Origin: a bacterium
GTDB taxonomy: Bacteria > Patescibacteriota > Minisyncoccia > UBA6257 > UBA9933
DNA length: 58,143 nt
Assembly: GCA_030693235.1 (NCBI GenBank)
Contig: JAUYBE010000016.1
Coordinates: 101,917 to 160,059, forward strand
Reading direction: 5' to 3'
Shown: positions 35,803 to 56,622 of the stretch, in pieces
Layout of the letters: the number at the start of each line of letters is the position of its first letter
Position numbering within the stretch: position 1 is the stretch's first letter
Position numbers and translations under genes: made by a program
Notes under the pieces: model-generated
Databases searched by the model: none
What the model saw: only the letters and a program-made list of their open reading frames with translations
What the model was told of the DNA's origin: nothing

Positions 35803-35840
35803 TTAGTCAACACTCGCACGATCGTCTAATTGTTGACTAA
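35803..35840. repeat. 38-bp CGATCG-core palindrome, site C
   Basis: TTAGTCAACACTCGCA-CGATCG-TCTAATTGTTGACTAA. Confidence 0.75.
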
Positions 35841-35862
35841 TTTTTTTATTTTTATTTCAATT

Positions 35863-37968
35863 TTAATTTACCGCTTTCAGCGACAATCCGATTCTTCCAT
35901 TATCAAGTTTTACTACTTTTGCCCTAACGACATTGCCGATTTTTACGACATCTTCAACTTTTTCAACAAACCCTTCTTTTAATTCCGAAACGTGAATCAT
36001 CCCGTCGTTGCCGCCGCCCAAATCAACAATGGCGCCAAAATCCAAAATCTTAATAACTTCGCCTTCGATAATTTCGCCTATCTGAAATTCGCGAGTAAGC
36101 GATTTAATATAACTAATCGCCAATAGGGCTTTTTCACGGTCGGTCGAAGCCACAAAAACCCGGCCGTCTTCTTCAATATCAATACTGCTGACGCCGGTGT
36201 CGGCGATAATTTTGTTAATTATTTTTCCGCCCGGACCGATGACTTCGCCGATTCTCTCCGGATTAATTTCCACTGTCATAATAATCGGAGCGAAAGAAGA
36301 AACTTGCGGTTTCGGCTTATCAATGGCTTTTTTCATCGCCTCTAAAATTTCCAAGCGGGCTTTTTTAGCCTGAATCAAAACTTCTTTTAATATTTCAGGC
36401 GTAACTCCTTCGATTTTAACGTCCATCTGAACGGCGGCAATACCGTCCTCGGTACCGGCGACTTTGCAATCCATATCGCCGTAATGGTCCTCCGGCCCCT
36501 GAATGTCGGTTAAAATTTTATAATTTTGTTGGTCAACCATAAGTCCCATCGCAATCCCGGCTACGGCTTTTTTAATCGGCACGCCGGCATCCATCAAAGC
36601 CATTGAAGAAGCGCAAACCGTCGCCATTGAAGACGAGCCGTTGGAAGACAAAATTTCGGAAACAATTCTAATGGTGTATGGAAATTCTTCCTGCGACGGA
36701 ATAAGAGATTGAACCGCTTTCCCCGCCAAGGCGCCGTGCCCGATTTCTCTGCGGTTGGTTACGCCCAGACGCTTGACTTCTCCGGTTGAAAAAGGCGGAA
36801 AATTATAATGAAGCATAAATCGCCGCTTAATCGTAGATTCCATCGTCTCCATTAATTGTTCCGCGCCGGGCGCTCCCAAAGTCACAACTGCCAATGCTTG
36901 GGTATTGCCGCGAGCGAAAAGAGCCGAGCCGTGGAGCCGTTTAAACAAGCCGACTTCGGCGTAAAGCGACCTGACCTCGTCCAATTTTCTGGCATCCGGT
37001 CTTTTTTCCGATTCTAAAATATTTTTATGAACAATCCTGTCTATTTCTTCTTCAAATAGATACTCTACTCCGGAAAAATCCGAAACGCCTTCGCTTTTCA
37101 GATATTCAAAAAGGCCGGATTTTAATTCGGCGAGGTTGTCGCTTTGCTCTTTTTTATTTCCAACGTAAATAGCCTGCTCCAATTTGTCCCCCAAAAACCC
37201 GAGAATTTTATTTTTAATTTCCGAGTCTATTTCTTTCAGTAAAATTTTTACTTTCGGTTTGCCGATTTTTTCTTTGATTTCTTTTTGAAATCCAATTAGT
37301 TTTTTGATTTCAATTTGGGCTTTCTCAAAAGCGTCGATAATGTCGTCTTCCTTCGCTTCATTTCCCGCCAATTCAATCATATTTATTTTATCTTCGGTTC
37401 CACTAACAAAAGCTTCAAAAAGAATCTGTTTTTCTCCGCCAGAAGGGGCGGATAATTCAGGGTCTGTCGGATTAATGAGTAAATCTCCGTCTTTGGTTTT
37501 TATCAATCTTAAACCGGCAACCGGACCGGCCCAGGGAATATCGGAAATCAAAAGAGCGGTTGAGGCGGAAAGCAATGAAATAAAATCAGGGTCGTTTTCT
37601 TCGTCATAAGACAAAACCGTAATCACTATCTGGACGTCGCGGCGCATTCGCGAATCAAAAAGCGGCCTCAAGGTTCTGTCAATCATCCGGCCGGACAAAA
37701 CCGCGCCTTCCGAAGGCCTGCCTTCGCGTCTGACAAACCGGCTGCCGAGAATTTTGCCGGCCGCGTAAAAACGCTCTTCATAATCCACGCTCAACGGAAA
37801 ATAATCCGTGATCCTGTCTTCCTTCCCCATCACCGCCGTCACTAAAACCGAAGTGTCGCCAAAAATGCCCAAAACCGCGGCGTTGGCTTGGCCGGCTAAA
37901 TCAGAAACTTCTAATGTTAAGGTTTTGCCATTAATTTCTGTTGTAAATTGTTGTTTGTTTAAATTCAT
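35863..37968 (-). CDS. pnp: Polyribonucleotide nucleotidyltransferase
   Basis: FVRREGRP, RREIGHG, SNGSSSMA, GDMD, KH and S1 domains. Confidence 0.96.
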   Translation of the reverse strand: MNLNKQQFTTEINGKTLTLEVSDLAGQANAAVLGIFGDTSVLVTAVMGKEDRITDYFPLSVDYEERFYAAGKILGSRFVRREGRPSEGAVLSGRMIDRTLRPLFDSRMRRDVQIVITVLSYDEENDPDFISLLSASTALLISDIPWAGPVAGLRLIKTKDGDLLINPTDPELSAPSGGEKQILFEAFVSGTEDKINMIELAGNEAKEDDIIDAFEKAQIEIKKLIGFQKEIKEKIGKPKVKILLKEIDSEIKNKILGFLGDKLEQAIYVGNKKEQSDNLAELKSGLFEYLKSEGVSDFSGVEYLFEEEIDRIVHKNILESEKRPDARKLDEVRSLYAEVGLFKRLHGSALFARGNTQALAVVTLGAPGAEQLMETMESTIKRRFMLHYNFPPFSTGEVKRLGVTNRREIGHGALAGKAVQSLIPSQEEFPYTIRIVSEILSSNGSSSMATVCASSMALMDAGVPIKKAVAGIAMGLMVDQQNYKILTDIQGPEDHYGDMDCKVAGTEDGIAAVQMDVKIEGVTPEILKEVLIQAKKARLEILEAMKKAIDKPKPQVSSFAPIIMTVEINPERIGEVIGPGGKIINKIIADTGVSSIDIEEDGRVFVASTDREKALLAISYIKSLTREFQIGEIIEGEVIKILDFGAIVDLGGGNDGMIHVSELKEGFVEKVEDVVKIGNVVRAKVVKLDNGRIGLSLKAVN

Positions 37969-38468
37969 TTTTTTAGTATCACTCTCGGTATTTTTTCCAA
38001 ATCAATAAAAAAATCCGCCGCTTCTTTGAGTTTGGCCGAAGCGCTGCGGCCAAAAGCCGCCACTTCAACTTCTCTGCCCAAACCCCATTTCAAATATTCC
38101 ACCAAGGGCACGAAATCGCCGTCGCCGGTTACCAGAACAATCGCGTCTAAAAAACTCGACATTCGAATGGCATCAACCGCCATTCCAACGTCCCAATCGG
38201 CTTTTTTTATGCCGCCCGGAAAAATTTGGAGATCTTTAACTCGTAATTCGACTCCGGCCTTGGTCAGAGCTTCAAAAAATGAAGCTTCCGCCGAATCTTC
38301 TCCTTCGCTTTTAACCACGTAACCAAGCGTCCGAATCAGCGGCCGGCCAGCAACCAGTTCCTTGATAAGTTCCCGGTAATTCACCCGAGCGCCATAAAGA
38401 TTCTTGGCCGAATGATAAAGATTTTGAATATCGATAAAAATTCCGATCCGTTGATTTTTGTAAATCAT
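37965..38468 (-). CDS. NYN-domain (LabA/DUF88) protein
   Basis: [24 protein letters not shown]. Confidence 0.9.
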
Positions 38469-38737
38469 ACCTTCTTTTTCAATCCCAACTTCCTCACTAT
38501 CGCCGAATAACTTTTCGGACTATTCTTGCTCAAATAATCTAAAAGTCTTTTCCGCTTGCCAACCATTTTCAATAATCCCCGGCGCGAATGATGGTCTTTC
38601 GGATTCTGCTTCAAGTGCCCGATCAATTCAAGAATTTGCTTCGTTAATAAAGCGACCTGAACCTCGCTTGAACCGCTGTCGCTTTCATGAAGTTGAAATT
38701 CATCAACAGTGTTTCTTTTTTGCCGAGCAGTTAACAT
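38465..38737 (-). CDS. rpsO: 30S ribosomal protein S15
   Basis: [33 protein letters not shown]. Confidence 0.96.
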
Positions 38738-38820
38738 TGAAATCAGTATAATTTATCTTTGGTTGTGTTGTCAACCTCGTTAAGTTGACAGACGTCGCAA
38801 TCCATATAAACTAATAAAAT

Positions 38821-39915
38821 ATGTTAGCGGTTAATAATAAAAAAACAGACTCGGCCGTCGGCCAACTGATAAAAACCGAACCGGATTTGATTTCCTTTCT
38901 TAAAGAAAATGATTTGATGGAAGCGAAACTTTTAAGAAAAACGCCAAAGGCGGTTTATTTTGATTTGGGAAAATTCGGCACGGGCATTGTTTATGGCGTC
39001 GAACTTTTAAACTCCAAAAACATCGTCAAAAGCTTGAACGCCGGAGAACCGATAACCGCTAAAATAATTGACGTTGAAAACGACGAGGGCTATGTCGAAC
39101 TTTCCCTGGCCGGCGCCCACAAACAAAAAAACTGGCAAGAAATCAAGGAAATCAAAGAGAAAGAAGAAGCGCTAACCGTTAAAATTATCGGCGCCAACAG
39201 CGGCGGTCTGGTCGCCAACGTAAATGAAATCAAGGCCTTCTTGCCGGTTTCCCAATTATCGAGCGAACACTATCCGCGAGTCGATGACGGCGACCGAAGA
39301 AAAATCTTGGAAGAATTAAGAAAGCTTGTCGGCCAAGAAATAAAAGTTAAAATCATTGATTTTAATCCGCGCGCCGATAAATTAATCATTTCCGAAAGGG
39401 GCGTTATGGAACAAAATATTAAAGAACTTTTGAATCAATACAAGGCCGGCGATATTATTAATGGCGTCGTTTCCGGCATCGCCAATTTCGGAGTCTTCGT
39501 TCGTTTTGTCGACCAGCCGGCGATTGAAGGAATGATTCATATTTCCGAAATCGACCATCGCCTGATCGACGCTCCGAAAGAAGCCGTCGAAATCGACGAA
39601 GAAGTCAAAGCGAAAATCATTGAAATAAAAGATGGTCAGGTTTTTCTCTCGCTTAAAGCCCTAAAATCCAACCCGTGGGAAACCGCTGCCGAGAAATTCA
39701 AAGAAGGCCAGGAAGTTGGCGGCGCTGTTTATAAATACAATCCGTTCGGCGTTTATATTAATTTAGAGCATAACCTCCAAGGATTGATTCACGTGGCTGA
39801 ATTCGGCAGTCAGGAAGAAATGAGAAAGAAATTGGAAATCGGCAAAAAACATCATTTTATTATTGAATCAATAAAACCGGAAGAGAAAAGAATTCTTCTG
39901 AAATTGAAAAAATGA
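38821..39915 (+). CDS. rpsA: Four-S1-domain RNA-binding protein (ribosomal protein S1)
   Basis: Repeated S1 motifs (AFLPVSQL, FGVFV..GMIHISE, GLIHVAE). Confidence 0.85.
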   Translation: MLAVNNKKTDSAVGQLIKTEPDLISFLKENDLMEAKLLRKTPKAVYFDLGKFGTGIVYGVELLNSKNIVKSLNAGEPITAKIIDVENDEGYVELSLAGAHKQKNWQEIKEIKEKEEALTVKIIGANSGGLVANVNEIKAFLPVSQLSSEHYPRVDDGDRRKILEELRKLVGQEIKVKIIDFNPRADKLIISERGVMEQNIKELLNQYKAGDIINGVVSGIANFGVFVRFVDQPAIEGMIHISEIDHRLIDAPKEAVEIDEEVKAKIIEIKDGQVFLSLKALKSNPWETAAEKFKEGQEVGGAVYKYNPFGVYINLEHNLQGLIHVAEFGSQEEMRKKLEIGKKHHFIIESIKPEEKRILLKLKK

Positions 39916-39925
39916 TGCCTTTGGC

Positions 39926-39952
39926 AAAGCCTTGACACTGTCAGGGTTTTTT
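39926..39952 (+). terminator. Terminator hairpin containing a TTGACA
   Basis: AAAGCCTTGACA-C-TGTCAGGGTTTTTT. Confidence 0.6.
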
Positions 39953-40161
39953 ATAATAATTTAATTAACTTGTGGCTTTCCCCTGATTGGCTGGGCGCGA
40001 TTGTGAAGAAAATCATAAGAGGTTATCGACGCGATTGCGAAGAAAGTCGCAAGAAGCACATTAATAAAAATTTAGAAAAAGGGGGTGAAAAATCAATTTT
40101 AGTTAGTTAAGGAAAATTTTTTATATTAACAATTTCACCAAAATAGAATAAGGAGAAATTC

Positions 40162-40395
40162 ATGGAACCAGCTAATGGGAGAGGCGAAAATCTGGTCAGA
40201 ATCAGAATCAAGGACGCTCCGGAAACAAGATGTTGCCCGAAATTGCACAAGTTTATAGGCATGACACGAAACGCAATCGCTACGCCGGCAGGACTTTATG
40301 TTTTTTATTTTACCGCCTCAAATGGAAATGGATTTGGCGGCATAATAACCGAGCCGCATCAGATTGCGTCGCATTTGGTAGAAGTACTCTCCTAA
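40162..40395 (+). CDS. Hypothetical protein
   Basis: AAGGAG SD; followed by hairpins and a terminator (40481-40519). Confidence 0.5.
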   Translation: MEPANGRGENLVRIRIKDAPETRCCPKLHKFIGMTRNAIATPAGLYVFYFTASNGNGFGGIITEPHQIASHLVEVLS

Positions 40396-40595
40396 ACCTA
40401 TGGCGGGCGTGGCCTTACCTCGAGAGCGCGCCGTAGTCGAGAGCAATAAAGGTCCCTCCTACCTTTAGCTCTTGCTTTTGGGCAGAGTTCTTTCTTCAAG
40501 AAAGAGCTCTGCCTTTTTTATTTTTTCAGTTAAAGGCTGATTCGCCTCGGGCGAAAAATAATCTTAAATTAATTAAATTTTTATATTCTGATATT

Positions 40596-40633
40596 TTACT
40601 ATAGTATCTCACGATCGTAGGATATCATAGTAA
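40596..40633. repeat. 38-bp CGATCG-core palindrome, site D
   Basis: TTACTATAGTATCTCA-CGATCG-TAGGATATCATAGTAA. Confidence 0.75.
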
Positions 40634-40705
40634 ATTAAAAACAAACCAAATAAATCTAAAAAGTAGAAATTTGACAGCCGATTAAAAATTACTATAATTT
40701 ATAAG

Positions 40706-42544
40706 ATGAAAACCTTGTCAAAAAATGTTTTTTGGGCGATTACAACGCTTCTTTTAATAGCGTTTATTTTTTCGTTCTTTTACGCCGAACAAAAACAGCC
40801 TGTGGTTTTAAGCATTGACCAACTGGTTTTAAAAATTAACAGCGGTGAAATTTCAAAAATTATCGTCAACGGCAATAATTTGGAAATTGAACTGAAAAAT
40901 AACGACAAGGCGGTTTCCAAAAAAGAAACCGAAGCCGGACTTTCGGAAACTTTAAAAAATTTCGGCGTTAATCCCGAAGCGCTTCAAAAAGTTAATCTGG
41001 CAATCAAGGAAGAATCTGGTTTCCGCTACTGGGCGAGCATTCTTATCCCCTCTCTTTTGCCGCTTCTTATTATCGGCGTCTTTTTATGGTTGATGTTCCG
41101 CCAGGCCAAAACCGGAATGAGCCAGGCCTTCACTTTCGGCAAAGCCAATATTAAACTTTTTTCCCAATTCAAGGACCAAATTACTTTCAAAGACGTTGCT
41201 GGACTGAAAGAAGCCAAAGAAGAATTGCTGGAAGTGGTTGATTTTTTGAAAAATCCGAAAAAATATCTGGAAATCGGCGCTAAAATCCCCAAAGGAGTTT
41301 TGCTTTTTGGCGCGCCGGGAACGGGAAAAACACTGCTTGCGCGCGCCGTAGCCGGCGAAGCCAATGTGCCGTTTTTTCATATTTCCGGTTCGGAATTTGT
41401 GGAAATGTTTGTCGGAGTTGGCGCCAGCAGAGTCAGGGATTTATTCCAAACCGCCAAAAAAGCCGGTCGGTGTATTATTTTTATTGATGAAATCGACGCC
41501 GTCGGCCGCGAGCGCGGCGCCGGCTTGGGAGGCGGAAACGACGAAAGAGAACAAACTCTTAACCAAATCTTGGTTGAAATGGACGGCTTTGAAAGAAACG
41601 ACGAAAGAATAATTTTGGCGGCGACCAATCGCCCGGATGTCTTGGATTCGGCGCTTTTGCGCCCCGGCCGATTTGACCGCCGGATTATTTTGGACTTGCC
41701 GGACATTAATGACCGCGAAGAAATTTTGAAAATCCACAGCCGCGGAAAAATTTTATCCAAAGATATTAATTTAAGAAAAGCCGCGGAGCGAACTCCGGGA
41801 TTTTCCGGAGCGGATTTAAGCAATTTAATGAACGAAGCGGCGCTTTGGGCCGCCAGAAAAAACCGAAAAGAAGTTGTCCAGCAGGATATTTTTGATTCAA
41901 TTGAAAAAGTTTTGCTCGGTCCCGAGCGCCGAAGCCGAGTTTTATCAGCGAAAGAAAAAGAAATCATCGCTTATCATGAAGCCGGTCACGCCTTAGTGGC
42001 GGCCAGCCTGAAAAATGCCGATCCGATCCATAAAGTTTCCATCGTCGCCCGCGGCCGGGCCGGCGGTTATACTTTAAAACTTCCGATTGAAGAAACTTAT
42101 CTGCGAACCAAATCGCAATTTATGACCGATTTATCCATGATGCTCGGCGGTTATATCGCCGAAAAAACGACTTTTGGCGATATTTCTACCGGCGCTTCCA
42201 ATGATCTACAGAACGCTTCCGAATTAGCGCGGAAGCTGGTCACTAAATTCGGGATGAGCGAAAAACTCGGGCCGATTACTTACGGCAAAACAGAAGAATT
42301 GGTTTTCTTGGGCCGCGAAATCACCGCCGGAAAAAATTATTCCGAAAAAATCGCGGGGGAGATTGACAAAGAAGTCAAAGCCCTAATTGACAAAGCCTTT
42401 GAAACCGCCAAAAAAATCATTATTTCCCGAAAACACGTTCTCAAAAACATCGCTCAAGAATTAATCGAAAAAGAAACCCTGGAAAGAGAAGCATTTGAAA
42501 ATCTGATAAAAGGATTTAAACTTAAGCCGATAGCGATTCAATAA
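40706..42544 (+). CDS. ftsH: ATP-dependent zinc metalloprotease FtsH
   Basis: Two TM helices, [29 protein letters not shown]. Confidence 0.97.
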
Positions 42545-42558
42545 GTCGTTATCCGTTT

Positions 42559-42635
42559 GCGCCCGTAGCTCAACTGGTTAGAGCACCGAGCTTATACCTC
42601 GGCGGTTCTTGGTTCGAGTCCAAGCGGGCGCACCA
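42559..42635 (+). tRNA. tRNA-Ile(TAT)
   Basis: GCGCCCG/CGGGCGC-ACCA; anticodon arm CCGAG-CTTATAC-CTCGG; GGTTCGAGTCC. Confidence 0.92.
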
Positions 42636-42639
42636 AATT

Positions 42640-43218
42640 ATGGAATCTCTTTTAACGAATTTCTCCGAAACCCATCGAATTATTTCTTATTTGATTATCG
42701 CGCTGGCAATCTTGATCGAAGGCGAAGTTGTCCTTATTTTGGCAGGCATTTTATCCCACAAGGGACATTTAGATATTTTTAATGTGATACTCTTTGCTTT
42801 TGCGGCCGCGGTTATTCACGACTTAATTTACTGGTCAATCGGCAAAAAACTTTCCGCTTCGGGCAAAAAAAAGTTTTTATTTATTAATCTGGAAAAAATA
42901 AAAGGGTTTTTAGAAAAAACGAAAATCAACAACGGCTTATATGTTTTTATTTCAAAATTCACCTGGAATTTAAACCGAATAATGCTTATAACAAACGGCT
43001 ATTTAAAAATGCCGATAAAAGAATTATTGCGTTACAGCATTCCAGCTTGTTTAATTTGGTCAATCACCTTTGTTTCAATCGGTTATGTTTTTGCCTTTGA
43101 AACCGACGTTCTTAAAAAAGACATAAAAACCGCGGCTCTTCTCTTAATGAGCTTTATCATAATAATAGTTATTCTTGAAAATATTCTTAGGAAAATAGTT
43201 GAAAAAAAGAACAAATAA
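42640..43218 (+). CDS. DedA family membrane protein
   Basis: 'EGEVVLILAG', 'DLIYWSIG', 'SKF..LNR'. Confidence 0.82.
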   Translation: MESLLTNFSETHRIISYLIIALAILIEGEVVLILAGILSHKGHLDIFNVILFAFAAAVIHDLIYWSIGKKLSASGKKKFLFINLEKIKGFLEKTKINNGLYVFISKFTWNLNRIMLITNGYLKMPIKELLRYSIPACLIWSITFVSIGYVFAFETDVLKKDIKTAALLLMSFIIIIVILENILRKIVEKKNK

Positions 43219-43384
43219 GTAGCATTACCGGGTAATGCGATGAAACCTACATTCTTGACAAAAAAGCGTTAAACATGTGAAACATCGGTGTTTTGCCAAC
43301 AGGCGGGTAAGCAGATGAAATCTACGTTTTTTGAAAATTGCTGTTTTTGATGTTGGTCGTGAAACATTTTGAAACAAAACAAAA

Positions 43385-43768
43385 ATGACTTATAAAACTA
43401 ATTTGGGCAATTTTGGAGAAGATTTAGCTTGCAAATATCTTGTGGATAAGAATTATAAAGTTATTGAACGCAATTTTCGGAAGCCGTGGGGAGAAATAGA
43501 TATTATCGCTAAAGCGCCTGATAAAACTTTGGTTTTTATGGAAGTGAAAACCCTTCGACAAAGCTCGGGACTAGCAAAAGAAGAGCAACTCCAGCCAGAA
43601 GATCAACTTACCCGCTCTAAGCTTCAAAAACTAAAAAGGGCCGCTTCTTTATATGCCGGCCACCGGCAAGAATTAATTAAAGATGAAAGGGGATGGAGAA
43701 TTGATTTAATAACCTTGACAATTAAAGAAAATCGTTGTGATATAAAACATTACGAGAATATTACTTAA
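43385..43768 (+). CDS. yraN: YraN (UPF0102) family putative endonuclease
   Basis: GNFGEDLA, ERNFR..GEIDII, LVFMEVK, WRID. Confidence 0.88.
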   Translation: MTYKTNLGNFGEDLACKYLVDKNYKVIERNFRKPWGEIDIIAKAPDKTLVFMEVKTLRQSSGLAKEEQLQPEDQLTRSKLQKLKRAASLYAGHRQELIKDERGWRIDLITLTIKENRCDIKHYENIT

Positions 43769-43774
43769 GAATAT

Positions 43775-43812
43775 TCAGTCAACAGTCGCGCGATCGCGCA
43801 ATTGTTGACTAA
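43775..43812. repeat. 38-bp CGATCG-core palindrome, site E
   Basis: TCAGTCAACAGTCGCG-CGATCG-CGCAATTGTTGACTAA. Confidence 0.75.
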
Positions 43813-43824
43813 AATTATTAAAAT

Positions 43825-44289
43825 TTATTGTTTAAATTTTAAGACCCTTTCATTTTCTTTTTCGCCATATTCAAATTTTATCCAAACCAAATCTTTCGGC
43901 AAGATTTTTTTTATTCTTTCCGGCCATTCTATTAAAAGAATATTCTCGGGATTATTCAAAATCTCTTTTAATCCCAATCCTGATAATTCTTTTGGCTCTT
44001 CAATTCTATAACAATCAATATGATAACCCAGTTTATAGCTTTTAGCTTTTAGTTTATAGCTTTTGGCGATAACAAATGTGGGGCTTGTAATTTTTCTACG
44101 TACACCTAAACCCCTCAAAAACCCCTGAACAAAAGTGGTTTTGCCAGAACCTAAATCACCAGCCAGCGCCAAAACCAAGGCGTTTTTGAGATTGCTTCGC
44201 TTTCGGCTCGCAATGACAGACGCCAAAAGACCGGCGAATTTTTTGGTCTGCCCGGAAGAATTTGTTTCTAAAAAAATATGCTGCGGCAT
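43825..44289 (-). CDS. tsaE: tRNA t6A biosynthesis ATPase
   Basis: GDLGSGKTTF, SPTF, HIDCYR, IEWPE. Confidence 0.93.
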   Translation of the reverse strand: MPQHIFLETNSSGQTKKFAGLLASVIASRKRSNLKNALVLALAGDLGSGKTTFVQGFLRGLGVRRKITSPTFVIAKSYKLKAKSYKLGYHIDCYRIEEPKELSGLGLKEILNNPENILLIEWPERIKKILPKDLVWIKFEYGEKENERVLKFKQ

Positions 44290-44326
44290 TTTATTTATGT
44301 ATTACTTTAAATTACGAAGCGCCCTT

Positions 44327-44393
44327 TGTCATTGCGAGCGAAACGAAGCAATCTCAATTAAGATTGCCACGGGCTAAAGCCCTCGCAATGACA
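44327..44393. repeat. REP/RPE-like palindrome pair
   Basis: TGTCATTGCGAGC...GCAATC / GATTGCC...CTCGCAATGACA. Confidence 0.75.
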
Positions 44394-44399
44394 CCAATA

Positions 44400-44939
44400 T
44401 CATTCCGATTCTAATAATAAATTAAATTTTTTGAAAATAAAAACAAAAACAAAAGACAGCGCTAAAGCCAAAGAAAAACCGACAAATAAATTAGTAAAAT
44501 TAAAATTGGTTTTATTAAGAGGGCCGGACAAATTTCCAACATCTTGAACCACAGCAGTGTTTTGAGTTGCCGCAATGCCGGTTTCCCCCATCGCGGCTTG
44601 ACCGGCAAAAATAAACCGGCCGTCATTTTGGCGAATCAAACTCTTGCCCTCGGCCGCGCTGCCAACATATTCCGCCTTATCAACCAAATCACCGCTCGCG
44701 TCATAGAGAAAAAGCGTTTCGCCATTATTGTTTAAAGAAATTTTTGTAATTTTATAATCGAAAGTTAAATACTCACCGGAATTAATTGTAACCTGCTTGA
44801 AAGAAAATGTTTTGCCTGAAGCGTCTTTAATCTGCCAGCCGCCGAGATCGACCGCGGCATTGGCGTCATTAAATAATTTTATCCATTCGCCATCGGTATC
44901 TTTGCCGACAGGATTGGGAAGAAACTCGTAAATTATCAT
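44400..44939 (-). CDS. Lamin-tail-domain protein with C-terminal TM helix
   Basis: 'IYEFLPNP.G.D..EWIKLFN', 'VDLGGWQI.D', 'LNNNGE'. Confidence 0.8.
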   Translation of the reverse strand: MIIYEFLPNPVGKDTDGEWIKLFNDANAAVDLGGWQIKDASGKTFSFKQVTINSGEYLTFDYKITKISLNNNGETLFLYDASGDLVDKAEYVGSAAEGKSLIRQNDGRFIFAGQAAMGETGIAATQNTAVVQDVGNLSGPLNKTNFNFTNLFVGFSLALALSFVFVFIFKKFNLLLESE

Positions 44940-45913: not shown

Positions 45914-45950
45914 GTTTAATAATATATGCTAACATCAGTCCCATACAAAG

Positions 45951-46058: not shown

Positions 46059-46060
46059 TT

Positions 46061-47894: not shown

Positions 47895-48455
47895 ATGAAA
47901 ACGAAAAAATTGTTAGTAGCTTGTGGTTTGTTGTTTGTTGTTGGTTTGACTGGCTGCGCCGCTATAGGCACCGGGCCGCAAAACGAACGCGAGGCATTTC
48001 CGCTTCGCAATCAGGATCCGCGAATTGGGCTGATTATTAATCAAGGGTCTGCTCATCTAAATCTTTTTATTTACGATGAGGCGGACCGGCTGATTGAACA
48101 GGTTTATGTTGCGGGTGTTAATCGTTATTTGGAAATGAACGGCCAGAACATCCCAAGATATTGGGCAAGACTACTGGCGATTGGACAGTATCGGGTGGAA
48201 ATTTTTCCGTTTTATTACAAAACGGACATTGTCGCTCCCTTGTTCGGAAAACCCGGCCGTTATCGGGTTGATTTACCTAAACAAACAGTCAGACTTTGGG
48301 TCAACAATAATCCGACCACTATTTGGTACGGGGGTCGCCACTGGGCTTGGATTCTTTATCTGAACGCTGGCAACATTCCCGAGACTGCCCACGGATTGCC
48401 GGGGATTAAGTTTAACTTCCAAGGCGAGGCCTGGAAATTGATTTTCGGAGAATAA
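47895..48455 (+). CDS. Hypothetical lipoprotein-like protein
   Basis: Lipobox LTGC; AGGAGGTGA SD; upstream TTGACA-16-TATCAT. Confidence 0.7.
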   Translation: MKTKKLLVACGLLFVVGLTGCAAIGTGPQNEREAFPLRNQDPRIGLIINQGSAHLNLFIYDEADRLIEQVYVAGVNRYLEMNGQNIPRYWARLLAIGQYRVEIFPFYYKTDIVAPLFGKPGRYRVDLPKQTVRLWVNNNPTTIWYGGRHWAWILYLNAGNIPETAHGLPGIKFNFQGEAWKLIFGE

Positions 48456-48478
48456 GAAAACAAAAGGAGGTGTTTAGA

Positions 48479-48952
48479 GTGAAAAAGTTATTGATTGCTT
48501 GTTATTGGTTGTTTGTTGCTTGTTTAGTCGGCTGCGCAACTCCTGGCGCTTGGTGGGAACCTGATACGCCCTTGGTAATTATTCATAAATATGATTACCA
48601 GGCGCAACCTCAACCCACTCCGCCCGGAGCACCACCCTTACCGCCGGGTTATGGTCCACCGCCGATTGATTATCAAACTATTTATCAGTCGGCATGGGAT
48701 AACTTTACATTGGTCATTTTTAAAAACGATTCTTATCGAAGGGTAAGAATTGAAATTGCTGGCCAGAAGCCGATTGTCCTGGCAGCCTACGGCGCTACCG
48801 CTGACCTCCACTTCGGAGTCGGCGAGCACCGCGTCAGAGTGATAATTGAAAAACCCACCGCCAGCCATAGCATATGGGAAATAGTGCGGTTTTTCAAAAT
48901 CTACATCCGACCCGAAGGCCGCTCGCAAATATTTCATATTTATGATTATTAG
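48479..48952 (+). CDS. Hypothetical lipoprotein-like protein with a Pro-rich linker
   Basis: Lipobox LVGC; AGGAGG SD; GTG start (48470 or 48479). Confidence 0.65.
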   Translation: MKKLLIACYWLFVACLVGCATPGAWWEPDTPLVIIHKYDYQAQPQPTPPGAPPLPPGYGPPPIDYQTIYQSAWDNFTLVIFKNDSYRRVRIEIAGQKPIVLAAYGATADLHFGVGEHRVRVIIEKPTASHSIWEIVRFFKIYIRPEGRSQIFHIYDY

Positions 48953-49061
48953 CGAGCGCCAATCGCCGGATATCGCCCCGCCTTCGTTTTTTAACAAAAC
49001 GATGCGCGGGGATTTTTTATGGGCTTATTGTATATTATAAAAATTTCGGTAGGATACGAGT

Positions 49062-49559
49062 ATGAAAATTCTCGGCATTGATCCCGGGTCAACGCGAGTT
49101 GGCTATGGACTGATAAAAAAAGAGAAGAACGAATTAAAATTTCTCGACTCGGGAATTTTAAAAATATCTTCAAAAGACAAAAACCAAAGACTGGTGGAAC
49201 TGGAAGAATCGTTTTTGGAATTATTAAAAAAAGAAAGGTTGGATTTGGCGGTTTTGGAAAAGCTTTATTTTATGAGAAACTTGAAAACCGCGCTGGAAGT
49301 TGCCCAGAGCCGGGGGGTCTTGACATTATTAATCGTTAAACACAAAATACCCCTATTGGAATTTACGCCCTTGGAAATCAAGCAAAATGTCAGCGGCTAC
49401 GGAGCGGCTGACAAGAAATCGGTTGCCAAGGCGGTAATGAAAATTTTAAACATAAAAAAAATCCACGGCGGCGATGACGCGGCCGACGCATTGGCCGCGG
49501 CCATCGTGGGGAGCAACCATACTAAAGGTCGTTTGAATGAAATTTTAAAATTAATATGA
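49062..49559 (+). CDS. ruvC: Holliday junction resolvase RuvC
   Basis: ILGIDPG, AQSRG, GYGAADK, DDAADALA. Confidence 0.94.
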   Translation: MKILGIDPGSTRVGYGLIKKEKNELKFLDSGILKISSKDKNQRLVELEESFLELLKKERLDLAVLEKLYFMRNLKTALEVAQSRGVLTLLIVKHKIPLLEFTPLEIKQNVSGYGAADKKSVAKAVMKILNIKKIHGGDDAADALAAAIVGSNHTKGRLNEILKLI

Positions 49560-49726
49560 TTGCCGAAGTTATAAAAAAAACAAGCGCTTTTAAACTTCAA
49601 AACAAACCCTGCCCTGATTGCGGAGAAGAAATGACAGATGATGTTTGCCCAACCTGCAATCCGGAAGAAATACCAGGCGACGAAACAGAAGAAAAGGCGA
49701 GTCCTGATGATGAAGAATTAATATAA
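49556..49726 (+). CDS. Small zinc-ribbon protein with acidic tail (56 aa, absent from the ORF track)
   Basis: MIAEV...CPDCGEEMTDDVCPTC...DDEELI*; ATGA overlap with the ruvC stop. Confidence 0.65.
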   Translation: MIAEVIKKTSAFKLQNKPCPDCGEEMTDDVCPTCNPEEIPGDETEEKASPDDEELI

Positions 49727-49728
49727 TT

Positions 49729-51855
49729 GTGGCTAATAAAAAAAAGCGCTTTTTAAAAATTGCCGGCTTTTTTATGCTAATCCTCCTGGGATTGGCTTTT
49801 TTTATTTTAATAATGGCGGCTAAAATGGCGAAAGAGCTGCCGAGCCCCGAGCAATTCGCCGAACGCCAAATCAATCAATCGACAAAAATTTACGACCGGA
49901 CAGGCAAAACTCTTTTGTATGAAATCTACGGCGAAGAAAAAAGAACCATTGTCGCTTTTGAAGAAATTCCCGATTTTGTGAAACAGGCGACTATCAGCGT
50001 TGAAGACCGGGAATTTTATTCTCACAAAGCTTTTGATTGGCGGGCTATTATTCGCGCCTTGTTTGTTAATATTATCAAGGGCCGGGTGGTCCAAGGCGGC
50101 TCAACCATTACTCAACAATTGGCCAAAAACGCTTTTTTAAGCCCGGAACGGACTTATGAAAGAAAACTCAAAGAATTAATTCTGGCTTATTGGATTGAAC
50201 AGCGCTATTCCAAAGACGAAATTTTAAATCTTTATCTTAATCAAATTTCTTACGGCGCCAACGCTTACGGCATTGAATCGGCCGGCCGGACTTATTTTAA
50301 TAAATCCGCCAAAGATTTGAGCTTGGCCGAGGCGGCTATCTTGGCGGCTCTGCCCAAGGCGCCGTCTTATTATTCTCCGTGGGGGACTCATAAAGAAGAT
50401 CTTGAACAAAGAAAAATTTATATTTTGGAACAAATGTTTAAATCGGGATTTATAGATGAAGAAGAAAAAGAAAGGGCTAAGAATTCCAAAATAAAATTCT
50501 CTGAACAAAACATCGGTCTGATTAAGGCGCCGCATTTTATAATGATGGTTAAGGATTATTTGGCTGAAAAATACGGCGAGGAAATTTTGGAAAAGGGCGG
50601 GCTAAATGTGATAACAACGCTTGATTGGAACTTCCAAAAAACCGCCGAGCAGGCTATTGGAGGCGGCGCTAAAAGAAACACCGAGCTCTACGACGGCCGC
50701 AACGCGGCTTTGGTCGCCCAAGACCCTAAAACCGGCCAAATTTTGGCTTTGGTCGGCTCAAAAGATTATCTGGCAGAACCGGAACCGATTGGTTGCGAAC
50801 CCGGCAAAGCCTGTCAATTTGAGGGCAATTTCAACGTAGCCAGCCAAGCTCTTCGCCAACCCGGTTCGGCTTTCAAACCCTTCGCTTATATCACGGCTTT
50901 TCAAAAGGGCTATTCGCCGGAAACAGTTGTTTTCGATCTCCCGACGGAATTTTCCACATACAGCAATGTCTGTCCCTTAACCGGTATTAATTTTTTTGAC
51001 AATAATTCTCTTTGTTTTCATCCGGAAAACTTTGACCGTCAATTTCGCGGACCGGTTAATTTAAGAAACGCTCTGGCTCAATCAATTAACGTGCCGTCGG
51101 TAAAAGTTCTTTATCTGGCCGGAATCAATGATTCAATAAAAACCGCTCAAAATTTCGGCATTACCACCTTGACCGATCCGAACCGCTATGGCCTTTCTTT
51201 GGTTTTGGGCGGCGGCGAAGTTAGGTTAATTGATTTGGTCAACGCTTATTCCGTATTTTCACAAGAAGGAATAAAACACCGGCAAGCGTTTGTTTTGGAA
51301 GTGAGAGATTCTCAGGGGAAAATTCTGGAAAAATATCTTGACCAAGCCACTCAAATCATTGAGCCCCAATACGCCAAATTAATCAACAATATTCTTTCGG
51401 ATATTGAAGCGCGTTCGCCGCTCTTTCAAAACAGCCTCGACCTCACGGTTTTCCCTAATCGGGAAGCGGCCTTAAAAACCGGAACCACTAATGATTATCG
51501 CGACGCCTGGGCAATCGGCTATACGCCGTCTTTGGTGGTCGGGGTCTGGGCCGGCAATAACAATAACAAACCAATGCAAAAACAAGCCGGCAGTATTTTA
51601 GCCGCCATTCCGATATGGCACGATTTTATGAGTAAGGTTTTAGAAAACTATCCGATTGAATTTTTTAACAAACCCGAACAAATAAATCAAACAAAGCCTA
51701 TATTAAATGGAGAATATATTCTTAATGATGAGACGCACGATATTCTTTATTATGTTAATAAAAACGACCCGCTTGGTCCTCAACCGTCAAACCCCGAAAC
51801 AGATTCCCAATTCTGGAACTGGGAATTGCCGATAAAAAATTCTAACTACTTTTAA
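49729..51855 (+). CDS. Class A penicillin-binding protein (PBP1A-like)
   Basis: EDREF, GGSTITQQL, RKLKE; SAFK, SIN, KTG. Confidence 0.93.
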   Translation: MANKKKRFLKIAGFFMLILLGLAFFILIMAAKMAKELPSPEQFAERQINQSTKIYDRTGKTLLYEIYGEEKRTIVAFEEIPDFVKQATISVEDREFYSHKAFDWRAIIRALFVNIIKGRVVQGGSTITQQLAKNAFLSPERTYERKLKELILAYWIEQRYSKDEILNLYLNQISYGANAYGIESAGRTYFNKSAKDLSLAEAAILAALPKAPSYYSPWGTHKEDLEQRKIYILEQMFKSGFIDEEEKERAKNSKIKFSEQNIGLIKAPHFIMMVKDYLAEKYGEEILEKGGLNVITTLDWNFQKTAEQAIGGGAKRNTELYDGRNAALVAQDPKTGQILALVGSKDYLAEPEPIGCEPGKACQFEGNFNVASQALRQPGSAFKPFAYITAFQKGYSPETVVFDLPTEFSTYSNVCPLTGINFFDNNSLCFHPENFDRQFRGPVNLRNALAQSINVPSVKVLYLAGINDSIKTAQNFGITTLTDPNRYGLSLVLGGGEVRLIDLVNAYSVFSQEGIKHRQAFVLEVRDSQGKILEKYLDQATQIIEPQYAKLINNILSDIEARSPLFQNSLDLTVFPNREAALKTGTTNDYRDAWAIGYTPSLVVGVWAGNNNNKPMQKQAGSILAAIPIWHDFMSKVLENYPIEFFNKPEQINQTKPILNGEYILNDETHDILYYVNKNDPLGPQPSNPETDSQFWNWELPIKNSNYF

Positions 51856-52963
51856 TCGGCATTATAATATAAAAATAAGAAACGTCTCCCGGCGATTTAA
51901 TCAATGCCGGCTTGTTATCGCCATTAAATCCGATAAAAACATTCTCTGAATCCAAGCCTTTGATTCCGTCCAAAAGAAACCGCCAATTAAAAATAATTTC
52001 CAACGACTGGCCGTTAATTTTCGCCGGAATTAAATATTTATTTTCCCCAAGGGTTTGATTAGATGATTGAATTTCAATGTTCTTGGCGCCCTCTTCAATA
52101 ACGGCTTTTACTTCATTGAGTCTATCGGTAAAAGCGCCTGTTAATTTTAAAGCGTTGATAAGCTGTTCTTTCCCTAAAACAATTTCTGTTTCAAAATTTT
52201 CCGGAATAATTTGCTGATAATCCGGGAAGTTGCCGTTAATCAATCTTGAAATAATTTCCAAATTTTCCGTTTTTAAAAAAATCTGATTTTGGTCAAAATA
52301 AATATCTATAATGTATTCATCCTCTTTGAAAATTCTAATAATTTCCTGAACTGTTTTTAGGGGAATAATTATTTTAAATTCTTTATCTATATTTGATTTA
52401 AATTGAGTGTTAATAATTATTTTTTCCGTTAAACGAAAACTGTCTGTGGCGGCTAATTTTAACGAATTTTGTTGAAAATCAAAAAGAATCCCGTTTAATT
52501 CCGGTTTGGTTTCTGAAATTTGAGCCGCGCTAATTAAAGATAATAATGATTTTTTAAAAATTGACGCGTTAATTTCCAATTTCGGCTGGTTTTTATCTAT
52601 TTTAGGTATAATAGGAAATTCTTCTTTTTTTATTCCTTGAATTTTAGCTAGATAATTATCCGTTTTAATTATTAATTTATTATCTTTATTTTCCAGATTT
52701 ATTCTTTCGCTTTGGAGATTATTGATTATTGAATTAAAAATATTAAAAGGAATTGTTAAATCTCCATCTTTAATGACTTTTCCGGGAATAAAAACCGTAA
52801 TAGCTAATTCTAAATTAGTCATTATTAATTTAATTTTATTATCTACTGTTTCTATTAGAAAATTTTTAAGAATCGGCAGGGTTGTTCCGTCTTTTTCGCC
52901 GCAGATTCTATTAATTGCTTCTAATCCCGATTTTAAATGATTTTTTAAAATAATTATTTCCAT
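51842..52963 (-). CDS. dnaN: DNA polymerase III beta clamp
   Basis: LPILKN, TNLE, ATDSFRL, SRLI.G.FPDY, IMPI; downstream of dnaA. Confidence 0.94.
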   Translation of the reverse strand: MEIIILKNHLKSGLEAINRICGEKDGTTLPILKNFLIETVDNKIKLIMTNLELAITVFIPGKVIKDGDLTIPFNIFNSIINNLQSERINLENKDNKLIIKTDNYLAKIQGIKKEEFPIIPKIDKNQPKLEINASIFKKSLLSLISAAQISETKPELNGILFDFQQNSLKLAATDSFRLTEKIIINTQFKSNIDKEFKIIIPLKTVQEIIRIFKEDEYIIDIYFDQNQIFLKTENLEIISRLINGNFPDYQQIIPENFETEIVLGKEQLINALKLTGAFTDRLNEVKAVIEEGAKNIEIQSSNQTLGENKYLIPAKINGQSLEIIFNWRFLLDGIKGLDSENVFIGFNGDNKPALIKSPGDVSYFYIIMPIKSS

Positions 52964-53117
52964 TTTAAAATTACTATTATTATAACTACTACTATAATTA
53001 TATTTTAATTATAAATAAAATAGTAGTAGTTGTAGTGGTTGTTGATATGTTGATAATGATAAAAATTTATTATTAAACCTAATTAATTTAATCTGTTTTG
53101 TTGTGGAAAATATGGGG
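52964..53117. other. Probable oriC (DnaA boxes plus DnaA-trio-like unwinding element)
   Basis: AT-rich dnaA-dnaN spacer with (TAG)n/(TAC)n trinucleotide runs and TGTTGATAA / TGTGGAAAA boxes. Confidence 0.7.
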
Positions 53118-54482
53118 TTAATTTTTATAAATATTTTCCTTAATTAATGTGATTTTATGGTTTAATTTCTGATTTTTATTGATTTCTTGAGAAATTTTTT
53201 CATAAGAGTAAATAATTGTCGTGTGGTCTCTTTTCCCTAATTTATCCCCAATGTCCGGATAAGACATATCCAAGATATCCCTTAAAAGAAAAGCGGTGAC
53301 TTGGCGCGGTTCAACAATTTTTTTTTTTCTGGAACGGCTTATTAAATCGCTTTGGGGAATTTCGTAAAAATCAGCCACCGCCTTAACTACTTGATTGCCG
53401 GTGATATTTTTGGAAGATTGTTGAATTGCGTTATTAATAACATCTTCAATAATTTTAGAAGTCGGTTCGATATTTTTAACTTCCTTATAAAAAAGAATTT
53501 TATTTAAAATTCCTTCAATTTCCCGGATATTTCTCTGAACTTTATTGGCGATTAAGTCGCAAATTTCATTCGGCAAGTCGGTGTTTTTTTCTTGAAGTTT
53601 GGTTTTGATAATCGCCATTCTCATTTCATAATCCGGATAAGTGATGTCGGCAATCATTCCGCCCTCAAAACGCGAGCGCAACCGCTCTTCAAGCGTGGGG
53701 ATGGCCGCCGGCGGTCGGTCGGAAGAAATAATAATTTGCTTGTTATTTTCATAAAGAACGTTAAAGGTGTGGAAAAATTCCTCCTCGCTCCTCTCTTTGC
53801 CGCCGATAAATTGAATGTCGTCGATGATTAAAACATCAACATTTCTGTATCTGGTTTTAACGTCATCCATTCTTTTGTTGCGAATCGCCCAAACCACGTC
53901 GTTGACGAATTTTTCCGAAGACACATATTTTACTTTAACTTTATTTTTATAAAGATTTTTAATTTCATTGCCGGCCGCTTGTATTAAATGGGTTTTGCCT
54001 AAGCCGGTGCCGCCATAAATAAAAAGAGGATTGTATTTTTTACCGACGTCTTTTGTTATGGCCATAGTGGCGGCGTAAGCCAATTCATTGGAAGAGCCCA
54101 CCACAAAAGAATTTAAATTATAGCGCGGATGAAGATTGGTTTCAGGGTCGATTTTTAATTCCGGCAGACTAGACTGGCGGTTGGAGCTTATTTTGGCGCT
54201 GACATTTTCTTTATCTTTGGGCGTTTTATTTTCTTCCATTAAAACGGTATATTCGACTTTCTTGATAGTTTCATCAAATGAGCGCAAAACCTCAAAAACC
54301 ATTTTATGGTATTTATTTTCAACCCACTCTTTCGCGAAATTATTGCCCAATCCGATTAAAATTTTGCCATCATCTTCTTTTTTAATCAGCCGGCTGTTTT
54401 TTAACCAGGTGAGAAAATTCGGCCGGGAAATTTGAAGTTCCAGCTCCGCCAATGTTGATTGCCAAAGTTGATTAAGATCCAT
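53118..54482 (-). CDS. dnaA: Chromosomal replication initiator
   Basis: YNPLFIYGGTGLGKTHL, IDDIQF, RLRSRF, RDHTT. Confidence 0.97.
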   Translation of the reverse strand: MDLNQLWQSTLAELELQISRPNFLTWLKNSRLIKKEDDGKILIGLGNNFAKEWVENKYHKMVFEVLRSFDETIKKVEYTVLMEENKTPKDKENVSAKISSNRQSSLPELKIDPETNLHPRYNLNSFVVGSSNELAYAATMAITKDVGKKYNPLFIYGGTGLGKTHLIQAAGNEIKNLYKNKVKVKYVSSEKFVNDVVWAIRNKRMDDVKTRYRNVDVLIIDDIQFIGGKERSEEEFFHTFNVLYENNKQIIISSDRPPAAIPTLEERLRSRFEGGMIADITYPDYEMRMAIIKTKLQEKNTDLPNEICDLIANKVQRNIREIEGILNKILFYKEVKNIEPTSKIIEDVINNAIQQSSKNITGNQVVKAVADFYEIPQSDLISRSRKKKIVEPRQVTAFLLRDILDMSYPDIGDKLGKRDHTTIIYSYEKISQEINKNQKLNHKITLIKENIYKN

Positions 54483-54572
54483 ACTTCTATTATTATTTAA
54501 TCTAAGATCAAGTCAAACGACGATAATTTATTAAGGTGTTGATTTTCTGGGGATAATTAATATAATTAAAAT

Positions 54573-54710
54573 ATGCCTAAAAGAACTTATCAGCCTAAAA
54601 AAAGAAAAAGGGCGAGAACGCACGGCTTTTTGAAGCGGTCGCGAACTCCGGCCGGAAGAAATGTTTTAAAAAAAAGAAGAAGGAAGGGGAGAAAAAAAAT
54701 CACTGTTTAA
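54573..54710 (+). CDS. rpmH: 50S ribosomal protein L34 (absent from the ORF track)
   Basis: [45 protein letters not shown]. Confidence 0.95.
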
Positions 54711-54797
54711 AAGTTTTTAAGTTTTAAGTTTTAAGTTTTAAGTTTTAGGTTTTAGTGGTTTTTACTAACACCTAACACCCAACACCTAATACCTAAT
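54711..54797. repeat. Inverted heptamer arrays (GTTTTAR)n/(CTAACAC)n
   Basis: Same element as 18175-18243. Confidence 0.75.
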
Positions 54798-54800
54798 TAA

Positions 54801-55118
54801 TTGCTTGCCAAACAATTTCGGCTTCAAATTCAGAAATGGCTGAGAGAGAATAAAAAAACAACCACCCGCAAGAGCGAATTTTTTATTGTTAAATTGCGGG
54901 ACAATAATTTATCATTCAGCCGGTTTGGAACGGTGATAAGCGCCAAAGTAAATAAAAGCGCGGTCAAGCGCAATAAAATCAAAAGAACGATTTTTAATTT
55001 TATCCGCTTTAAAAAACTTCACGAGTTGGCCGGAAAAGATATTTTGATGATTGTTTTGCCAGCGGCAAGTAAATTAACAAAACCGGAAATTGAAAAAGAA
55101 TTAGAAATAATATTATGA
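54801..55118 (+). CDS. rnpA: Ribonuclease P protein component
   Basis: SRFGTVIS.KV.KSAVKRNKIKR; synteny with rpmH and yidC. Confidence 0.92.
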   Translation: MLAKQFRLQIQKWLRENKKTTTRKSEFFIVKLRDNNLSFSRFGTVISAKVNKSAVKRNKIKRTIFNFIRFKKLHELAGKDILMIVLPAASKLTKPEIEKELEIIL

Positions 55119-55801
55119 GCGAATTATTCAATAAAATTTTATATCAACCCCTTTTTGATATTTTGGTTTTTTTATACCAATATCTCGGGGACTTGGGAGT
55201 CGCCATTATTGTCTTGACTGTTTTAATCAGGATAGTTTTATTTCCTTTGTTTTATAAAGGCGCTAAAGACCAGGCGATTATGCAGCGCTTGGCGCCCAAA
55301 GTCAAGGAGATTCAAACCAATCATAAAAACAACCGCGAAGAACAAGCAAAAGCTTTAATGGGATTGTATCGCGAGCATCGGGTGAATCCCTTATCCGGTT
55401 TTTTATTAATTCTTGTTCAGTTGCCGATTTTAATCGCTTTATACCAGGTTTTTATGAAAGGCCTTTCTGTTGAGGCCGGTTTTTTGGAGCTTACCTTTTT
55501 AGGTTTGATTGATTTAAGCAAGAGAAGCGCGGTCATTGTCGGTTTGGCGGCTGTGGCTCAATATTTTCAAGGCAAGCTGTCAATAATTAAAAGCGGAAAA
55601 CCGTTTAAGGATTTAACTCCAATTGAAAGGATGGGTCATCAAATGGTTTATTTGGGGCCGATTTTGACGGTAATTTTTTTGTATTTTTTTAATTTACCAT
55701 CGGCGGTCGGTCTTTATTGGTTGACAACGTCTTTGTTTTCGGTTATTCAACAGATTATAATTAACAAGAGATTAAAATTAAATGGACCAACTTCATCGTA
55801 A
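55115..55801 (+). CDS. yidC: Membrane protein insertase YidC (short form)
   Basis: LGVAIIVLTVLIR, VNPLSG, QLPILIALY, LPSAVGLYW. Confidence 0.93.
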   Translation: MSELFNKILYQPLFDILVFLYQYLGDLGVAIIVLTVLIRIVLFPLFYKGAKDQAIMQRLAPKVKEIQTNHKNNREEQAKALMGLYREHRVNPLSGFLLILVQLPILIALYQVFMKGLSVEAGFLELTFLGLIDLSKRSAVIVGLAAVAQYFQGKLSIIKSGKPFKDLTPIERMGHQMVYLGPILTVIFLYFFNLPSAVGLYWLTTSLFSVIQQIIINKRLKLNGPTSS

Positions 55802-56213
55802 TATTCAAAAACTGATTGAGCTGATGGGATTTAATGATTTTTCCGTCAGTCTTGAGCCCGAGAGCAACCGTTTTTTGATTTTTATCAACGACGGCGATTT
55901 TTTGAAAAATTTTTTACCGAACTTCGTCGCGGATTTTGATTACGTGGTTAAGCTGATGGCTAAAAAAATCGGCGTGGAGATGGTTGTCGTTGATATAAAT
56001 AATTATCGTCGGGAACGGGAGAATTTAATTCTGGAATTAGCCAGAGCCGCGGCTCGAAAAGCAACGGCTACCAAACAGGAAGTGGCTTTGCCGACGATGA
56101 ACGCTTATGAGCGCCGCTTGGTTCATGTGGAGCTGGCTTCGCATCCGGATATTAAAACCGAAAGCGCCGGCGAAGGCAGAGACCGCTATGTGGCAGTGAA
56201 GCCGATAGAATAA
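55782..56213 (+). CDS. jag: Jag/KhpB-like KH-R3H protein
   Basis: VDINNYR, MNAYERRLVH, ESAGEG.DR. Confidence 0.85.
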   Translation: MDQLHRNIQKLIELMGFNDFSVSLEPESNRFLIFINDGDFLKNFLPNFVADFDYVVKLMAKKIGVEMVVVDINNYRRERENLILELARAAARKATATKQEVALPTMNAYERRLVHVELASHPDIKTESAGEGRDRYVAVKPIE

Positions 56214-56225
56214 AATATTTATAGA

Positions 56226-56358
56226 TATTTATTTTTTAATTACAAAATATTATTTTCTTAGAGCTCGGAGTATTTTTCTGCTGAAAAATCTCCTCCTCTC
56301 GCGCCGTCGCGCTGCGAGAGGCTCTTCAAAAACAATATTTCATAATTCAAAACTAATA
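56226..56358. repeat. Long inverted repeat with AT-rich arms and a GC-rich palindromic centre
   Basis: ~38-nt arms TATTT...AGAGC / GCTCT...TAATA. Confidence 0.55.
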
Positions 56359-56455
56359 GATATTATTATTCTGGATTCTTTTAATTAGGCTTTTAAATCA
56401 GAGTTTTTCGAAATAATTTTCAATTCTGCCGGTCGGCGGATTTTTTGATAGCTCT

Positions 56456-56509
56456 CGAAGTCCGATGTCCCAAGTATTGACACAGATTCGCGCCGGACAT
56501 CAGACTTCG
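56456..56509. repeat. Palindromic element CGAAGTCCGATGTCC / GGACATCAGACTTCG
   Basis: 14/15 inverted repeat. Confidence 0.6.
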
Positions 56510-56584
56510 CCATATTGGATTTTCCTTTTAATTTTGCGATGTCGGATAAAGCCCAAAAGCGCTATTATTTGGGGTGATATACTT

Positions 56585-56622
56585 ATAGTCAATAGTCTCA
56601 CGATCGCGAGAGTGTTGACTAA
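56585..56622. repeat. 38-bp CGATCG-core palindrome, site F
   Basis: ATAGTCAATAGTCTCA-CGATCG-CGAGAGTGTTGACTAA. Confidence 0.75.

Follow-up and report, generated by a model that had tools for sequence, protein, structure and literature searches.

Sites and genes in the window

The window analysed here is a 58,143-nucleotide stretch from the genome of a tiny groundwater Patescibacteria bacterium (611 kb in 18 contigs, with a completeness rating of 100%). It contained four solo 38-bp palindromic sites, C to F, together with a gene for a small PaaX-like protein (mini-PaaX) lying between two further sites, A and B. The host genome is designated G000, and other G and L numbers denote genomes and loci of relatives. 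Site C (35803..35840; palindromes are given without strand) was located between the convergent genes rpsT and pnp, just past an ordinary terminator, and site D (40596..40633) in a tandem-gene setting, 37 bp upstream of a 12/12 match to the sigma-70 consensus preceding ftsH. Site E (43775..43812) took up the greater part of the 56 bp that separate convergent yraN from tsaE, and site F (56585..56622) lay between convergent jag and a LamG-domain gene, where it adjoined another repeat family. The outer 10-bp arms paired at 10/10 (C), 8/10 (D), 9/10 (E), and 8/10 (F) positions, and CGATCG stood exactly at the centre of all four. A preliminary description of this DNA had reported the four sites at these coordinates, with C and E between convergent genes; both statements were confirmed, and F is convergent too.

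The mini-PaaX gene of the window (11281..11877, minus strand) codes for 198 amino acids with a predicted winged helix and a Cas2-like domain. Site A (11190..11227) was a palindrome 54 bp downstream of the gene, while site B (11940..11977), upstream, was a hybrid of one A-type and one D-type arm. The protein matched PF20803 (E 5e-11) and PF09827 (E 2e-6) in Pfam. Residue D131, which we take to be the equivalent of the Cas2 metal-binding aspartate, was invariant in 29/29 aligned homologues. The structure model had a mean pLDDT of 83 and a pTM of 0.55, and the fold search ranked E. coli PaaX first (8a39, E 3.4e-3), with Cas2 structures next. The winged helix is predicted from the secondary structure of the model and this weak fold match, and the Cas2-like domain from Pfam. 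The protein stops after the Cas2-like domain, with no Pfam match to a C-terminal phenylacetyl-CoA-binding domain or to a GIY-YIG nuclease domain. Three PF20803 genes were present in the genome: the window gene, one at G000:C13:4864-5451 (the C13 paralog), and one on C3.

Genome-wide distribution of the sites

A half-site scan that allowed hybrids and one core mismatch returned 28 sites in the genome, of which 7 lay beside the three mini-PaaX genes and 21 were solos, nearly all of them single copies. The core, described earlier as invariant, differed by one base in 2 of the 28, and other lineages have other cores. Outer arms pairing at 7/10 or better flanked 20 of the 90 CGATCG occurrences in the genome, and five genome-size third-order Markov controls gave 0, 0, 0, 1, and 0 such sites. 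The pattern proposed earlier (TAST-N11-CGATCG-N11-ASTA) had 14 matches in the genome and none when read backwards, although the left arm of E (TCAG) falls outside it. Chance, which had already been thought an unlikely source of six sites with fixed spacing, is thus excluded, and enrichment over background was clear.

A search of 185,579 species genomes for the family 1 pattern, that of sites C, E, and F, gave 17 stretches. Each had a Patescibacteria-group title (Wolfebacteria, Jorgensenbacteria, Parcubacteria, and one Saccharibacteria label), and they may overlap genomes already among the compared relatives. The same pattern had 0 matches in viral contigs, and a phage origin of the sites was rejected. 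In a phylum-wide scan of 251 genomes only the host had more than one match; the pattern used there fixes the arm ends, so most arm families escape it.

Nineteen of the 21 solos were intergenic, and 10 of these 19 lay at most 30 bp from a stop codon. Solos occurred at 6/31 convergent and 0/45 divergent junctions (p 0.003, tRNAs included), a bias that falls to p 0.03 and 0.12 when open reading frames (ORFs) shorter than 100 or 120 residues are dropped; a pair upstream of gyrB counts as divergent if an 87-residue ORF is no gene. Sites were not enriched at synteny breaks (8/18 against 51/137, p 0.61), and rearrangement breakpoints were rejected as an explanation. At the 3' end of G000:C17:126040-126534, which precedes what is presumably the RNase P RNA gene, five relatives carried solos of five arm families and the host none, which marks this gene end as a hot spot.

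The remaining two solos were in frame inside rnhB and miaA. Among 29 rnhB orthologues (4 not located by the search pattern), only G066 had a family 1-like site at that place; the 29 miaA orthologues (2 not located) were without one. Six more in-gene copies were found in relatives. In relatives, other short repeats occupy the rnhB and miaA loops: the surface loops of RNase HII and MiaA (L171, L172; orthologues L176-L235) carried in-frame short repeat families that differ among relatives, a general rewriting of loops by repeats in this lineage.

Anatomy of the sites

Site anatomy was described from 161 sites picked on the outer arms (7/10 or better) and the core, so that core conservation in this set partly follows from the selection. 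Within families, positions 3-9 were nearly fixed (0.93-1.0) and positions 11-15 the most variable (0.78-0.83). The inner spacers, earlier called variable, do not vary freely, as the inner six positions of a copy tended to mirror each other (589/708 against 518 +/- 9 in shuffled half-sites, p 2e-4; 118 sites in 23 families of at least 3 copies), and 61 of the 161 sites were perfect over 16 bp. Such copy-specific perfect variants point to copying between the arms or to selection that favours pairing; if symmetric master copies were amplified, the same symmetry pattern would be expected. For copying between arms, template switching at quasi-palindromes offers a known route (PMC3820800).

The palindromes have sharp ends. 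The 21 solos showed no target-site duplication, with 0-3 bases in A+T-rich flanks, and neither a conserved 5' GTAG-type tetranucleotide nor an orientation, the flanks being unconserved and the sites symmetric. Hairpin folding was modest (-3.7 to -11.8 kcal/mol) and is uninformative, since the sites were chosen as palindromes.

Arm families and mini-PaaX paralogs

Sites C, E, and F, with others, make up arm family 1, whose arms lie on either side of the C13 paralog and of its orthologues in L342 and L239. Site D belongs to arm family 2; its arms match an arm of site B and those bracketing orthologous cassettes at the xerC locus. Because of these matches, D is the only one of the four solos likely to be tied to the window's own gene. 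The link to a PaaX-like gene drawn in the preliminary description therefore holds, with the amendment that the arms of C, E, and F belong to the C13 paralog.

A palindrome of at least 13/19 was present on both sides of 35 of the 41 mini-PaaX genes with both flanks scorable; five further genes without one flank were omitted, and the window gene and the C3 gene were scored as lacking an upstream palindrome because their upstream sites are hybrid. Among 177 like-sized control genes of the host genome 3 passed, and matching arms were found only at the C13 mini-PaaX. The TAST-type pattern occurred in 8/23 PaaX-positive and 0/17 PaaX-negative relatives. By manual reading, all 23 RCGATCGY matches in G066, a genome with four paralogs and as many arm families, were palindromic sites, against 3/39 in five PaaX-negative genomes. 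Arm likeness climbed with protein identity, from 3.0/9 below 30% to 6.1/9 above 60%, a relation that is weak overall (Mantel rho 0.16, p 0.01) and in which kin are not independent.

Family 4 sites (G000:C3:20391-21183 and C4:5333-5370; L004, L174) had two unlike arm types and adjoin genes that we take to be groEL, grpE-dnaK, and lemA-htpX. One mini-PaaX clade precedes grpE or clpB in relatives, and a heat-shock link is possible for this family. Close by, at G000:C4:5490-5900 (L174), a small and presumably helix-turn-helix-like ORF was flanked by its own short inverted repeats and is perhaps another gene-plus-repeat system. None of the sites was seen in the inspected flanks of the lone RAYT-like fragment of the genome (C17:226282).

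Comparison with orthologous junctions

The rpsT/pnp junction of site C was kept in 25 of 29 relatives, and G066 alone had a site there, of another arm family. An intrinsic terminator-like hairpin (35754..35788, minus strand) is distinct from site C and is common in relatives without the site; C was accordingly rejected as the rpsT/pnp terminator. Site D was absent upstream of ftsH in 29/29 relatives (23 of them with rpsA upstream), which rejects D as a conserved ftsH operator. For site E, 19 syntenic loci were found among 80 metagenome loci (several near-duplicates). L062 carried a perfect family 1 site between similar flanks, and L064 a site from another family that a further repeat had split; the remaining syntenic loci had none. 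The split form was also present at this locus in G001, of the same genus, and one relative in public run X5 had a family 1 site at E. Site F had a counterpart, of another family, in 1/29 relatives; for one of the 29 the sequence stopped at jag. Cassettes were absent from C, D, and F (0/29 relatives each) and from E (0/19 syntenic loci); the inserted gene that the preliminary description suggested looking for was thus missing at all four sites, while other junctions alternate between solo and cassette. These comparisons show that site positions turn over and are sometimes inherited and sometimes reoccupied by another family. Public-run contigs over C-E and over E yielded no clean filled/empty pair.

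At the junction beyond the window's cassette, a chromosomal XerC-type recombinase gene (12001..12912, minus strand) serves as context only, being present in 47/50 family genomes, mostly without a cassette. It was rejected as the cassette enzyme, since xerC is a general gene and most cassettes sit elsewhere. The tRNA-Leu gene (11053..11135, plus strand) marks the far side of the junction, which is empty, solo or cassette in relatives.

Other elements were seen at the same junctions. An element of about 180 bp with inverted ends lay inside the right arm of the mini-PaaX site at yraN/tsaE (L308 / L064), and a similar one was found at rpsT/pnp in L032. A second hairpin repeat family (44328-44392 and 56668-56753), which by eye resembles the NTS-type repeats of PMC11893778, adjoins site F and, in L071 and L074, takes up the yraN/tsaE junction; contig depth was very high near 44190-44400. 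Beyond site F, a 71-nt minigene (56946-57016, plus strand) folds like the tRNA-like domain of transfer-messenger RNA (tmRNA), with G3-U70 and A73 and without the message region. Its RF00023 score was 28 bits (E 3e-9), below the cut-off of 47; the full tmRNA is at G000:C14:10101-10462, and no copy of the minigene was found in the compared loci. The window also contained a tRNA-Ile with a TAT anticodon (42559-42635, plus strand), and the genome has Arg GCG and TCG tRNAs.

Interpretation and alternatives

Arm families match paralogs, the sites co-occur with the gene and their positions turn over between relatives, and solos are placed after stop codons or, in frame, within protein loops that vary. 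We consider it probable that the solos are paralog-specific 38-bp palindromes, likely mini-PaaX binding sites, that have spread as REP-like non-autonomous elements into tolerant positions. The E. coli PaaX operator, TGATTC(N27)GAATCA (PMC9493321), is a 39-bp site with far-spaced inverted arms and fits the geometry of the 38-bp sites. By analogy with E. coli PaaX on its operator, a mini-PaaX dimer would hold the conserved outer arms with its pair of winged helices, and the Cas2-like pair would be placed over the central CGATCG. More tentatively, new copies might arise through a hairpin or single-stranded step that copies one arm onto the other, perhaps assisted in trans by the cognate protein, and a minority of solos may be remnants of cassette loss between its two repeats.

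Several observations count against this interpretation. The fold search gave nothing at E <= 0.001 and the pTM was only 0.55, while the symmetry reached p 0.004 for family 1 in the host genome and p 0.09, not significant, for all families. Three orphan sites remain in PaaX-negative genomes, and family 3 solos (40 bp) bracket no gene in the host genome. In-gene copies substitute loop sequence and are not a clean 38-bp addition, and no filled/empty pair was related closely enough for an insertion to be delimited. In contigs of the run that is probably the source, C, D, and E are spanned without breaks, differences or joints; contigs drop rare variants, so this speaks only against an abundant alternative form in the assembly. 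Distant genomes reuse several of the positions, as would also be expected of a selected host function.

The preliminary description had offered the solos as empty targets or excision footprints of the PaaX-like cassette, which would exit by exchange at the core, with the circle re-entering any solo in either orientation. We regard this as unlikely for the solos in general. Part of it stands, as solo and cassette do alternate at some junctions: at the xerC junction 29 relatives had 4 same-orientation cassettes, 1 inverted (G066), 2 solos, 7 cleanly empty alleles, and 15 other neighbours. For three of the 21 host solos, relatives carry a cassette at the corresponding gene end: at the ychF junction (L030), before grpE (L006, L011, L016, L237), and after an RNA methyltransferase gene (L244). 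Conversely, G024 has a solo after trxB where the host has a cassette. Together with the hybrid-armed sites and the different mini-PaaX clades at the same junctions, this alternation lends real support to a possible interconversion at some junctions. The lack of any cassette at C to F does not fit, however, and solos inside open housekeeping genes are hard to explain in this way. Solo and cassette at shared junctions differ in arm family, and junctions are shared between solos about as often (~14/70, against ~3/19 for cassette junctions, a rough manual count), with unrelated repeats at the same spots, so tolerance explains the overlap. The seven empty xerC alleles before tRNA-Leu bear no scar. 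An encoded recombinase is a hallmark of site-specific recombination elements; the cassette encloses mini-PaaX alone, with no recombinase between its sites, xerC being external and general. Positions beside the core were the least conserved, and the site counts at synteny breaks showed no excess. A further, doubtful reading makes mini-PaaX itself the mobilising enzyme: a Cas2-fold dimer, directed to the outer arms by its winged helices, would cut the symmetric CGATCG centre and move, invert or excise both the one-gene cassette and the bare palindrome.

A host regulon, or transcription roadblocks, of an ordinary, self-regulating PaaX-like repressor would account for the geometry, which equals that of the PaaX operator, for the best fold match, and for upstream copies close to the mini-PaaX start. 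It would also suit the distance of D from a perfect promoter consensus, the reuse of certain gene ends in several genera, and the family 4 sites near what are presumably chaperone genes. We judge it improbable all the same: solos avoid divergent junctions (with weaker statistics once short ORFs are left out), D is missing at ftsH throughout the relatives, C stands beside a pre-existing terminator, and 17/40 relatives have no PF20803 match. An operator needs no downstream copy, in-frame copies or within-copy symmetry, and operators at the promoters of a conserved gene set were not found at ftsH or at the divergent junctions, which bears out the earlier opinion that a promoter operator is unlikely. 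Far less credible still are sites independent of mini-PaaX, of HIP1 type or linked to methylation or the nucleoid through GATC, as had also been suggested. HIP1 is marked by a genome-wide excess of GCGATCGC/CGATCG and by cognate GATC/CGATCG methylases. GCGATCGC does occur within 13/28 sites, but with the sites masked CGATCG stood at 0.98 of expectation and GATC was depleted to 0.44; no D12-class or C5 methylase was found in the genome, only a single broken N6/N4 fragment. Cores of other mini-PaaX lineages are without GATC, and the sites follow the presence of mini-PaaX. The HIP1/Dam link was therefore rejected.

Relation to known systems

We return to the preferred reading of paralog-specific palindromes spreading like REP elements. 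REP/RAYT (TnpA-REP) systems consist of dispersed short palindromes with a cognate HUH Y1 gene (PMC3116915, PMC3333891). The mini-PaaX sites resemble these REP/REPIN-RAYT elements in being dispersed, imperfect, mostly extragenic palindromes within the 20-60 bp typical of REP, in having a cognate gene with the repeat on either side, and in the pairing of each paralog with a repeat family of its own. They differ in that the partner matches PF20803/PF09827, with a winged helix and a Cas2-like domain, and is not an HUH Y1 transposase. There is no 5' GTAG guide or orientation, the sites being fully symmetric with a conserved centre, and about 20 single copies stand against hundreds in doublets.

Ssn/NTS/SRM (PMC11893778) shares the repeat-gene-repeat layout, inverted repeats of 20-50 nt, and co-evolving protein/repeat pairs. 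Unlike Ssn, mini-PaaX lacks GIY-YIG and its sites have no one-sided conserved flank, and their centre is conserved where the identity of the NTS loop is dispensable. With PaaX (PMC9493321; PDB 8a39) the protein shares the Cas2-like central domain and the far-armed site of about 39 bp, and probably the winged helix. It differs in lacking the C-terminal effector domain, in retaining the Cas2-type acidic residue, and in that its sites flank its own gene on either side and also occur at 3' ends and inside genes. Rickettsia palindromic elements and miniature inverted-repeat transposable elements likewise place palindromes in frame in unrelated housekeeping genes (PMC10969869); the present sites are 38-40 bp against about 150 bp, without target-site duplication, and bracket a cognate gene. 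The mini-PaaX sites thus work like REP/RAYT and Ssn/SRM and belong to none of these systems or to the Rickettsia elements, since the defining protein and sequence features of each are missing. No paper on a mini-PaaX repeat system was found in a literature search whose coverage left out subscription papers.

The origin and spread of REP-type repeats is an open question, and the mini-PaaX sites would be a case in which this layout arose independently around an unrelated protein. Nature offers dozens of protein/site pairs that keep one centre and vary in their arms, so that specificity and activity can be examined directly on proteins of 200 residues. If mini-PaaX were the mobilising enzyme, it would be a transposase or recombinase on a Cas2 fold, programmed by the arms and unrelated to HUH, DDE, serine, and tyrosine enzymes. 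The preferred reading would assign a role to a stand-alone Cas2-like protein that is common in these tiny genomes, in which short protein-matched repeats rewrite the surface loops of housekeeping proteins.

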